A stretch of DNA of 64,000 nt from a virus (lineage: Duplodnaviria > Caudoviricetes): IMG/VR virus record IMGVR_UViG_3300020336_000481, positions 1 to 64,000 of that record; one strand, 5' to 3'. The position numbers and the translations under genes are program-made. Positions 10,841 to 61,363 of this stretch are shown here, in pieces; within the stretch, counting starts at the first letter, position 1; the number at the start of each line of letters is the position of its first letter. The notes beneath the pieces are model-generated. The model ran no database searches. It was not told the DNA's origin and worked only from the letters and a program-made list of their open reading frames with translations.

Positions 10841-10861
10841 TATTATATTACTCCTATAATG

Positions 10862-47264: not shown

Positions 47265-47293
47265 TATTTAATTTCCTTTAGAGAGCATAAATA
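47265..47293. promoter_or_regulatory. divergent late promoters (TAAATA minus 47270-47265; ATAAATA plus 47287-47293)
   Basis: each precedes an RBS and ATG on its strand. Confidence 0.6.
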
Positions 47294-59093: not shown

Positions 59094-59123
59094 AAAAAGG
59101 GCGGCTTAGGTCGCCCTTTTTTT
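59094..59123 (+). terminator. intrinsic terminator after gp23
   Basis: GGGCGGC-TTAG-GTCGCCC followed by T7 and preceded by A5. Confidence 0.9.
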
Positions 59124-59151: not shown

Positions 59152-59298
59152 ATGGCTCGTGTTAAATTTAATCCAACCCTAGAAGCACATGAATACACAA
59201 AAAAGAAAACATCAATAGGCGGAGGAAAACATTCCAAAACTATGATGAATAAAAGTAAAAGAAGAAGCTACAAAAAGTATAATGGACAAGGAAAGTAA
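59152..59298 (+). CDS. 48-aa very basic protein (MARVKFNPTLEAHEYTKKKTSIGGGKHSKTMMNKSKRRSYKKYNGQGK), not in the ORF track
   Basis: AAAGGA RBS at 59143-59148, ATG 59152, TAA 59296-59298. Confidence 0.7.
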   Translation: MARVKFNPTLEAHEYTKKKTSIGGGKHSKTMMNKSKRRSYKKYNGQGK

Positions 59299-59325
59299 TT
59301 TTTTTAAATTTTGGTAAAAAAGAGG

Positions 59326-59354
59326 TTGACTTCTGAATAAAAGTTTGCTATATT
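59326..59354 (+). promoter_or_regulatory. sigma70 promoter TTGACT-N17-TATATT with extended -10 TG
   Basis: -35 at 59326-59331, TGc-TATATT at 59346-59354, AT-rich upstream tract. Confidence 0.8.
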
Positions 59355-59360
59355 AAGTAC

Positions 59361-59577
59361 ATAAGCAATAAAAGAGTAATTAACTTTTATTTGTAGTGCA
59401 TCGAAGAGGCCTTTACCAGAAGGGCTTAAGATGACTAGCCAGGGGTGGTACCCAGGGTCTGTAGTAGAAATACGCAGGTTCACATCGCAGTCACTAGCGG
59501 GGTTAGGTTGTACAGAAACAGAATGGTATTCCGGACTGTGCTTGTAGGTGAAACCGAGTCCTACCTACTTTGCTTAT
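59361..59577 (+). ncRNA. unclassified ~217-nt structured small RNA
   Basis: bounded by promoter and terminator; ends pair (ATAAGCAA/TTGCTTAT); several internal hairpins; no ORF with an RBS. Confidence 0.75.
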
Positions 59578-59583
59578 CTTTTT

Positions 59584-59617
59584 AAAAGCCCTAGCATTTA
59601 TTTGTTAGGGCTTTTTT
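59584..59617 (+). terminator. intrinsic terminator closing the small RNA
   Basis: GCCCTAGCA-loop-TGTTAGGGC followed by T6. Confidence 0.88.
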
Positions 59618-59625
59618 CTCTTTTG

Positions 59626-59632
59626 ATAAATA
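59626..59632 (+). promoter_or_regulatory. T4-type late promoter ATAAATA
   Basis: immediately after the terminator, ~93 nt before ATG 59726. Confidence 0.7.
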
Positions 59633-59634
59633 CA

Positions 59635-59708
59635 TATGTCAATATTTAGTGTACCGCTGACAACGGTGGACTTATGCGGAAACCAACCGCGTATGACATA
59701 GAACGTCA
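59635..59708 (+). promoter_or_regulatory. structured 5' leader of the downstream structural operon
   Basis: hairpins TACCG/CGGTG and TATGCGG/CCGCGTA enclosed by TATGTCA/TGACATA. Confidence 0.5.
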
Positions 59709-59725
59709 ATAAAAAGGAGAAAAAA

Positions 59726-60085
59726 ATGGGAAGACCAATTAATAAAAAATATTTTGGTGTTGTCGGCGATAACACACAGCCAACAATAGCAATTAGATAT
59801 CACGATGGATCAGCTACTAGAGAAGGTTATATACTTTCTCAAAGAGGCACAAACAAATTTAACTGTGACAGTGCAGCTGGCTCAGCAAAAGTTTGTAGAC
59901 TTGTTAATGAGACTGCACCTAACGCTGAAGGCGAATGTTCTTTAGTAGGTTACGCAGACGGTGGCACAGCAATTATTCTTAAGAAAATGTTCAATAGAAC
60001 AGCAATAGACTGGAATAGCAATCGTTACAAGTGGACAGTTGAAGACGATTCAACTCAATCATTAATTAGATTAACAGCTATCTAA
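59726..60085 (+). CDS. putative virion protein
   Basis: AAGGAG RBS, late promoter, first gene of a structural run. Confidence 0.7.
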   Translation: MGRPINKKYFGVVGDNTQPTIAIRYHDGSATREGYILSQRGTNKFNCDSAAGSAKVCRLVNETAPNAEGECSLVGYADGGTAIILKKMFNRTAIDWNSNRYKWTVEDDSTQSLIRLTAI

Positions 60086-60106: not shown

Positions 60107-61363
60107 ATGGCAAGAGTAGTTAGGGTTTCTAACAGTAATTACAAAATAGCTGTTCAGTCAGGTGGACAAATAACACTTGATACTGGAACAACTAGTAATG
60201 AGACTAGATCGATATCTGGTGCTACTCAAGCCAACCCTGTTGTAATTACAACATCAGTAGCAAATAACTTTTACGATAAACAAAGGATAACTATTACTGG
60301 TGTTGTAGGTATGACTCAGTTAAATGATAATAGCTATTACATCAGAATATTAACTAATCAAACTTTTGAACTATACAGCGACCCGTCACTTGCAACCAGT
60401 GTAAACGGTACAGGATATGGATCATGGGTAAGCAATGGTGTTGTTGAAGGTAGGTTTGGTAATGTAGTAGTAATAGGTAACCTTGAAGTACAAGGTACTA
60501 CAACTACTGTAGACAGTACAACACTAACTGTTGCAGATAATATTATTGTACTTACTAAAGACAATATATCTGCAGGTATTCCAAGTTCATTAGGATATCA
60601 AAGTGGTATTGAAGTAGAACGCGGAAGTTTACAAAATAGTAAATTAGTATTTGATGAACAAATTGCTTGGACATTAGGTGGAACTTCAGGACAAGGTACT
60701 TGGACATTTTTAAAAGGCACAGATCTTTTACCAATCAAAACTCCGGGTATTGTTGCAGGTGGAAATTTATACGTAAGTACAGGTAACGGTGTTATTAGTG
60801 TCACAGGCACAACAGATTATGAAGAAAAAGTTTTTGGATATACCGGCGGAACAATTAACGGAACAGTTATTGATGATGATGCAGTACCAAACGCAAAAGC
60901 AGTTGCAGATTACGCAACATATGTAATTCAAAATTCATTCCAGTCAGCTATTGCAGAAGGTGATACTAAAGCAGAAGTATATGACTTTAGTGTAACTGGA
61001 AGTGAAAGTAATTTTAATATTGCAGTAGACGGTATATCAAACACAAATTTTTACCCTAACCGAGTTGAATTTCCTAGTGTTAAAATTCAAGAAAACGAAA
61101 TAAGCACATTAGATAGTAATAAAGATTTAATTTTATCTGCACCTGGTACAGGCTCAGTAAAAGTAAAAGATGTATTAAGTTTAACAACTCCGCTATACGA
61201 TGACGATTTATCTAATGATCCTAGTGCACCAGCAGATGGAATTAAAGTTTATTCTAAAACCCAGGCACAAGGACAAACAGGACTATATTTTGTAAATAGT
61301 AATAATAAAAGCGGAGAACTAGTAAGCAAAAACCGAGCATTATTGTTTGGTATGTTGTTTTAA
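60107..61363 (+). CDS. virion structural/fibre protein
   Basis: ISGATQANPVVITT..G..GMTQLN small beta module, GNLEVQGTTTTV fibre repeat. Confidence 0.65.
   Translation: MARVVRVSNSNYKIAVQSGGQITLDTGTTSNETRSISGATQANPVVITTSVANNFYDKQRITITGVVGMTQLNDNSYYIRILTNQTFELYSDPSLATSVNGTGYGSWVSNGVVEGRFGNVVVIGNLEVQGTTTTVDSTTLTVADNIIVLTKDNISAGIPSSLGYQSGIEVERGSLQNSKLVFDEQIAWTLGGTSGQGTWTFLKGTDLLPIKTPGIVAGGNLYVSTGNGVISVTGTTDYEEKVFGYTGGTINGTVIDDDAVPNAKAVADYATYVIQNSFQSAIAEGDTKAEVYDFSVTGSESNFNIAVDGISNTNFYPNRVEFPSVKIQENEISTLDSNKDLILSAPGTGSVKVKDVLSLTTPLYDDDLSNDPSAPADGIKVYSKTQAQGQTGLYFVNSNNKSGELVSKNRALLFGMLF

Follow-up and report, generated by a model that had tools for sequence, protein, structure and literature searches.

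A manA-Family RNA Gene of a Jumbo Phage and Its Proposed Self-Association

ROOL and GOLLD are large noncoding RNAs of phages and prophages, for which the cryo-EM literature of 2024-2025 describes RNA-only multimeric cages, i.e., closed homo-oligomers. The pRNA of phage phi29 is likewise phage-encoded; it is transcribed from an early promoter and forms a pentameric or hexameric ring via intermolecular loop-loop pairing.

The manA RNAs (RF01745) were rated as cis-regulatory elements and probable riboswitches by Weinberg et al. 2010 (PMC2864571). Five manA RNAs were resolved by cryo-EM as octamers, decamers, and a 60-subunit icosahedral cage, with construct A0F1 occurring as 60-mer, 67AA, pho_A28C, and pho34_A767 as decamers, and 6FAB as octamer/decamer (bioRxiv 10.64898/2026.07.01.735769). 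A pentamer is common to these assemblies and is held together by intermolecular L5-L7' and L8-L9' or L3-L8' kissing loops, by GNRA contacts of L6 with P6', and by L1-L1' contacts. The multimers were obtained in vitro, in 10 mM Mg and following annealing at 50 C, and are described in this one preprint (bioRxiv 10.64898/2026.07.01.735769).

The window analyzed here comprises 64,000 nt (IMG/VR record IMGVR_UViG_3300020336_000481, positions 1 to 64,000) of an uncultured jumbo T4-like myovirus. Between the capsid gene and the next late gene, a manA-family RNA, its promoter, and its terminator form a self-contained cassette. We consider it likely that the product is a free RNA and one that, somewhat more probably than not, associates with further copies of itself. 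Transcription by the sigma-70 RNA polymerase of the host would start at approximately position 59361 and stop near 59617, resulting in a transcript of ~255-260 nt. This transcript would fold into the nine-helix manA core (P1-P9), with an extra helix, P0, clamping its 5' and 3' ends, and would act as a free RNA and not as leader of the neighbouring gene.

Assignment to the manA Family

The RNA body extends from 59361 to 59577 on the plus strand (~217 nt) and comprises the Rfam core (59369-59574) and the clade-specific closing helix P0. A permissive Rfam scan of the region yielded a full-length match to RF01745 at 59369-59574, covering model positions 1-192 of 192 with 54.7 bits (E 3.7e-13); across the whole 147-kb source record, where the RNA occurs as a single copy, the match has an E value of 1.7e-14. 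The curated gathering score of RF01745 is 55.2 bits. Due to the 0.5 bit by which the window copy falls short of this score, it is missed by default annotation, and the sole report of the default Rfam scan of the window is freshwater-2 (RF02980) at 59653-59728.

Related viral contigs were gathered via the capsid protein and via the protein of 119 aa encoded downstream, and syntenic homologues were tied to the window copy by nhmmer. manA matches were observed at the syntenic place in 12 out of 50 related records, of which seven exceed the cut-off (55.5-79.9 bits). Due to the full-length match close to the cut-off and the homologues above it at the same place, the window element is identified as a manA-family RNA, i.e., by its sequence it is a member of an already catalogued family, with which it also shares the nine helices and a phage-borne, aquatic origin. 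The sequence-only reading had recognised no family and had named a match to Rfam as the result that would remove the novelty. Such a match was in substance found (manA, 54.7 versus 55.2 bits, with syntenic homologues above the cut-off), and the reading as an unrecognised family is not supported.

Our own covariance model, R1, has one match in the window (214 bits). The subclade of the window scores 44.7-60.8 bits, on either side of the Rfam cut-off, and about half of it is missed by standard annotation. A blastn search of 50,697 cultured phage records with the element gave no match. Weak Rfam E-value matches at the terminator (VrrA, Spot 42, RsaE, and others) were rejected as terminator look-alikes far under their cut-offs. 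ARAGORN, which applies a cloverleaf criterion, predicted 0 tRNA genes in the window, in agreement with the earlier statement that the element is not a tRNA.

Promoter and Terminator

A sigma-70-type promoter was located by consensus scan at 59326..59354 on the plus strand. It consists of the -35 element TTGACT (59326-31), a 17-nt spacer, and the TG-extended -10 element TATATT (59349-54), with 10 of 12 consensus matches, and the predicted transcription start is A59361. The intrinsic terminator of the RNA gene (59584..59617, plus strand), also found by consensus scan, has a 13-bp stem, a 6-nt loop, and a T-run, the hairpin itself covering 59584-59615. Promoter, predicted start, and terminator lie where the sequence-only reading had placed them.

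Immediately upstream of the RNA, GGTTGAC-N17-(TG)nTATAnT is present in all 28 homologous loci of a first set, with 7-9 nt between promoter end and fold in each of them, and in 59 out of 68 loci of a wider set. A terminator in the same position, within ~10 nt of the fold, was observed in 21 of 25 homologous loci, with stem sequences that differ from locus to locus; in the remaining 4 of the 25 a detectable terminator is missing. Fold and terminator are separated by 2-8 nt and do not overlap. Together with the late promoter box of the next gene (see below), these observations bear out the earlier description of a self-contained transcription unit for a structured noncoding RNA with a host-type promoter. 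The promoter type suggests early expression; the ends, abundance, and timing of the transcript are predictions from the sequence.

The terminator hairpin of the window (59584-59615) is nearly identical to that of a related locus (L046:3634-3665), with one compensatory stem change (CCC/GGG versus CTC/GAG), and yet the manA bodies of both loci belong to different subclades. This likeness across subclades suggests a mosaic exchange of cassette parts.

Secondary Structure and Covariation

The minimum free energy of the window RNA differs only modestly from that of shuffled sequences (z = -2.03), and the case for the structure is therefore made on comparative data. In a structure-blind MAFFT alignment of 23 homologues, 79% of the pair cells are paired, compared to 66% in shuffled and 36-48% in slid controls, and 47 pairs are changed on both sides. 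For 69 distinct sequences, which were drawn from contigs sharing the 16-mer AGGGGTGGTACCCAGG and aligned with model R1, 90% of the cells are paired versus 73% (shuffled) and 35-51% (slid), and compensatory changes occur in 52 of 66 pairs. A homologue search had been proposed along with the sequence-only reading, and the 69 distinct relatives show a conserved structure with compensatory changes.

Mapping of the Rfam alignment revealed the complete nine-helix manA architecture in the window, with all helices on the plus strand. Helix P0, a perfect 8-bp pairing of 59361..59368 with 59570-59577, is lacking in the Rfam model and shows changes on both sides in 8 out of 8 pairs, with 83% of the cells paired among the 69 homologues. 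The P1 hairpin (59369..59389) carries the loop L1, AGUAAUUAA (59375-83), which contains the palindrome UAAUUA (59377-82). The outer multiloop stem P2 (59392..59396 with 59565-59569) has all five pairs changed on both sides in the covariance-model alignment and three of five in the MAFFT alignment; a pseudoknot reading of the Rfam '[[[[[' at P2 was rejected, as this is the WUSS notation for a nested multiloop stem. Within the P2 multiloop lies P3 (59399..59433), which is composed of P3a (59399-402/59430-33) and P3b (59408-14/59420-26) and is closed by L3 (UACCAGA). The P4 domain (59435..59506) has a stem, 59435-40/59501-06, with compensatory changes in 6/6 pairs and 99% of the cells paired among the 69 sequences, and encloses the hairpins P5 (59442-53; L5 GUGGUA), P6 (59455-82; GNRA loop L6, GAAA), and P7 (59485-500; L7 AGUCACUA). 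P8 (59510..59541) is formed by 59510-15/59536-41 and 59521-23/59529-31 with L8 UGGUA (59524-28), and is followed by the P9 hairpin (59544..59564) with L9 UGAAACCGAGU (59549-59).

Most helices proposed from the sequence alone reappear in this architecture. The perfect pairing of the RNA ends is P0, the helix 59368-74/59384-90 corresponds to P1, the GTA-GAAA-TAC arm is the tip of P6 with its GNRA loop, and GTACAG/CTGTGC and GTAGG/CCTAC are P8 and P9, respectively. In case of the proposed fold around GCCTTT/AAGGGC, the surrounding CATC/GATG stands as P3, except for the outer TAGT/ACTA (59394-97/59434-37), which shows no compensatory change, equals shuffles, competes with the covarying P2 and P4, and was rejected. 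The proposed fold also placed base 59368 in two helices and omitted P2, P4, P5, P7, and the inner P8.

Conserved elements shared with the manA family are GUG after P2, UAAG-U-GA after P3, the UUG-GGU...UCC-ACC segment at P9, complementary L5/L7 and L8/L9, and the signatures GUGGUR in L5, GNRA in L6, and an ACC-type L7, which read GUGGUA, GAAA, and AGUCACUA in the window. Compared to Rfam manA, the window RNA possesses the end-closing P0, a longer P6, a P3 internal loop shortened by 5 nt, a 9-nt palindromic L1 loop instead of a GACG tetraloop, and an L8/L9 duplex of UGGU/ACCG instead of CUGUA/UACAG. Helices and loops are numbered in the manA RNAs solved by cryo-EM in a way that maps one to one on the window RNA; those constructs lack P0 and the terminator hairpin. 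The window RNA is not among the constructs.

Loop Complementarity

Loops of the window RNA are complementary in the combinations for which contacts were resolved in the manA multimers (L5-L7', L8-L9', L3-L8'), and the GNRA loop L6 is present as well. L5 and L8 are both of the UGGUA type, and L3 (UACCA), L7 (ACUA), and L9 (ACCG) are complementary to them, with L5/L7 forming UGGU/ACUA and L8/L9 UGGU/ACCG; L7 is an ACUA variant that pairs through G-U. All 59 of 59 relatives have GUGGUA as L5, and their L6 is nearly always a GNRA loop, with GAAA or GAGA in 48/59. Complementarity between L8 and L9 is preserved via at least six duplexes (UGGU/ACCR, GGUA/UACC, AGGA/UCCU, AUGA/UCAU, GAGA/UCUC, and GUGG/UCAC), and the mean run with the own partner amounts to 3.35 compared to 2.59 with shuffled partners, a value reached in 0 of 2000 shuffles. 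L5 and L7 are complementary throughout the relatives as well, although here the comparison of own with shuffled partners does not discriminate (454/2000).

In the subclade of the window, L1 is a loop of 7-9 nt with a Watson-Crick palindrome; in the other subclade it is a tetraloop, GACG or GAUA, as in the Rfam consensus. Among 59 distinct relatives, the palindrome is UAAUUA in 26, UAGCUA in 8, AUUAAU in 2, and UUAAUUAA and UUAUAA in 1 each. Constructs 67AA (UGAUCA) and 6FAB (AGCU core) have a self-complementary L1, too. Since a palindromic hairpin loop has no partner inside one molecule, the paired substitutions that retain it are most readily explained by contact with a second copy of the RNA. 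For the other loops, the sequence is compatible with intra- as well as intermolecular pairing, and since L8 is able to pair with L3 or L9, the contact network is ambiguous. Taken together, the covarying L8/L9 and the alternative L1 palindromes fit the intermolecular kissing contacts of the manA cages.

Genomic Context

The neighbouring genes form a T4-type head module with a gp21-like protease, a scaffold protein, and gp23. The capsid protein of the window is nearest to those of jumbo myoviruses, with 67-72% identity to Phosso, Vibrio 2.275.O, PA5oct, and GAP32, so that the host of the RNA belongs to the GAP32/PA5oct/Vibrio 2.275.O capsid lineage, whereas the manA family is known from T4-like cyanophages. 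CheckV estimates the completeness of the source record at 42%. In the four cultured capsid relatives, ~100 nt follow the capsid gene, which leaves no room for the RNA, and no match to model R1 was found there.

Out of 79 capsid loci, 26 carry the RNA cassette. The loci in which the 119-aa gene has its closest relatives (L003, L007, L009, L010, and L050) lack it, and there the capsid terminator is directly followed by the same late box, leader, and gene. As this order is kept without the cassette, the window is interpreted to carry an insertion of ~500 nt that consists of a 48-aa ORF and the RNA cassette. The 48-aa ORF (59152-59298) is very basic and has a weak match to phrog_17967; tblastn revealed no homologues of it in 114 related loci. 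The capsid gene has a strong terminator of its own at 59094-59123 (GGGCG-loop-CGCCC followed by a T-run), which was unlisted by the consensus scan and is kept in relatives, e.g., as AGGCCCTACGGGGCCT followed by a T-run.

Outside the RNA gene, a late-promoter box, GATAAATAC, is located at 59625..59633 on the plus strand and precedes the freshwater-2 leader (RF02980; 59653-59728, plus strand; 61.6 bits), a 5' leader of ~90 nt, and the late gene of 119 aa (p119; 59726-60085, plus strand), which is the next gene after the RNA cassette. The box sequence ATAAATAC occurs in the window at 10861, 13323, 17898, and 36591 on the minus strand and at 47287, 50028, 59626, and 62546 on the plus strand, and all 8 of 8 sites are situated 15-95 nt upstream of a ribosome binding site and start codon on the same strand. 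The count alone is not enriched over shuffles and only the positions are informative; due to these, the box behaves as the T4-like late promoter of the phage, and by its position the copy behind the RNA cassette drives both the freshwater-2 leader and p119. Relatives keep late box, leader, and gene whether or not they carry the manA cassette, which is consequently dispensable for the 119-aa gene in them. In the wider set, the RNA is followed next by a p119 homologue in 15 out of 47 loci, and the other neighbours differ. Further downstream, a 418-aa protein (60107-61363) has a weak match to an E1_FCCH-like domain, which at 28.5 bits narrowly misses the cut-off, and is otherwise unannotated.

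manA in Other Phages

A sigma-70 promoter directly upstream of the RNA is a feature which the window shares with marine A0F1-type manA loci, where it ends at most 25 nt from the fold in 47 of 54 cases; a Shine-Dalgarno sequence and ATG within 70 nt downstream were observed in 5 out of 60. In loci of this type (L256-L335), the -35 element TTGACA of the manA promoter often falls within the terminator hairpin of the preceding gene, either in its stem or in its loop (GGGTTGACACCCTC, then a T-run), and many of them contain a recurrent downstream element, AGACCTAAGATGCAAC...GGGCAGATGGTCT. An exact-word search of the viral contigs for P1 of construct 6FAB gave no match. In Synechococcus phage S-CREM1 (L133:1633-2144), manA occurs inside a run of tRNAs and wcaG and abiF RNAs. 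It is placed between tRNA-Leu and tRNA-Asn with a gap of 1 nt on one side and an overlap of 1 nt on the other, which suggests that this manA RNA may be released by the tRNA processing enzymes.

Proposed Function and Alternatives

Palindromic L1 loops, covarying loop pairs, and the contacts seen by cryo-EM in manA RNAs favour a free, early-made RNA that associates with itself. That the copies associate by loop-loop pairing into closed multimers, as other manA RNAs do in vitro, appears somewhat more probable to us than not. Three kinds of loops are candidate contacts: L1, which is self-complementary, those of UGGUA type (L5 and L8), and those of ACC/ACU type (L3, L7, and L9). Early synthesis and assembly would take place in the infected cell, where the assembly may serve as scaffold, container, or decoy. 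ROOL and GOLLD resemble the window RNA in being phage-associated and free-standing, a likeness that is an analogy and not membership, as they are three to four times longer, have a different fold, and gave no sequence or model match in the Rfam scans of the window.

Alternatively, the RNA could be a riboswitch or cis-regulatory leader, which senses a ligand and thereby controls whether transcription continues past its terminator into the late genes behind it. This is in line with the published rating of manA (PMC2864571) and with the order of promoter, aptamer-sized fold, terminator, and gene, which is the layout of a transcriptional riboswitch; the manA RNA of P-SSM2, located 16 nt upstream of a purL-like CDS, agrees with the older leader model as well. 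A terminator that competes with the aptamer was, however, not recognized, since the two are set apart by the short gap, the terminators vary while the fold is conserved, and the terminator arms form duplexes with the RNA body that do not differ in energy from those of shuffled arms (mean z over 21 loci: 5' arm -0.25, 3' arm -0.85), i.e., no anti-terminator pairing was found. Unlike in the original description of manA, the RNA is not positioned as a 5' UTR, but is separated from the next ORF by terminator, late promoter, and leader, and this downstream unit is unchanged in relatives lacking the cassette. A single class of downstream genes is not observed either, given that p119 homologues share this position with various other genes among the 47 loci, and a ligand pocket would not be expected to show palindromic L1 loops and covarying loop pairs. 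The late promoter and leader of the next gene, the absence of the cassette from the closest relatives, the varying downstream genes, and the lack of an anti-terminator favour a free noncoding RNA, and we regard a riboswitch as improbable.

A free RNA could also act as a monomer, either as a small RNA base-pairing with host or phage mRNAs or as a protein decoy or sponge, with the loop pairs representing intramolecular tertiary contacts. Promoter and terminator of its own are typical of bacterial sRNAs, and the L5-L7 and L8-L9 complementarities could in principle close within one molecule. We nevertheless think this unlikely, since a long conserved single-stranded seed is lacking, the conserved bases being nearly all located in helices or complementary loops, since the solved manA structures place these loops between molecules, and since an L1 palindrome conserved in five variants needs a second copy. 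Even less can be said for a chance fold or a small protein gene with a short overlapping ORF as the real product. ORFs of 38-59 aa do exist in the window, and the stretch is overlapped by short ones at 59304-59483 (minus strand), 59431-59547, and 59445-59585 (both plus strand), but no ORF is conserved across 27 homologues, in which the longest one shifts in frame, strand, and length (25-62 aa), and the substitutions in the helices are compensatory and not codon-patterned. This coding reading is effectively refuted, and the unit is devoid of a protein gene, as had been noted before.

It is tempting to speculate about a link between a self-associating manA RNA and the phage head, in which a pentamer-based assembly would take a pRNA-like or cargo role; this would explain the fixed site behind gp23. 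The link is drawn from the position of the gene in the head module, no similarity to phi29 pRNA being expected, and we rate it as highly improbable. T4-type packaging motors are not known to need an RNA.

Implications for the manA Family

For 16 years manA has been an orphan riboswitch candidate, and the 2026 preprint provides RNA-only cages in vitro but no biology. The locus in the window and its ~90 relatives present manA as an autonomous, insertable gene with a host-type promoter and a terminator of its own, and they do so in jumbo myoviruses, a phage lineage in which manA had not been described. Moreover, exactly those contacts by which the cages are held together, both loop-loop and self-complementary, are preserved across natural variation, which argues that manA assemblies may be selected in nature. 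Extended to the family as a whole, the view that manA RNAs are early-transcribed phage RNAs which multimerise in infected cells and are not riboswitches, with L1 palindromes and swapped L8/L9 duplexes as the footprint of intermolecular contacts, is put forward tentatively, its chances falling slightly short of even. If the multimerisation reading is true, the L1 and L8/L9 footprint would be the first support with relevance in vivo for RNA-only cages occurring in nature.
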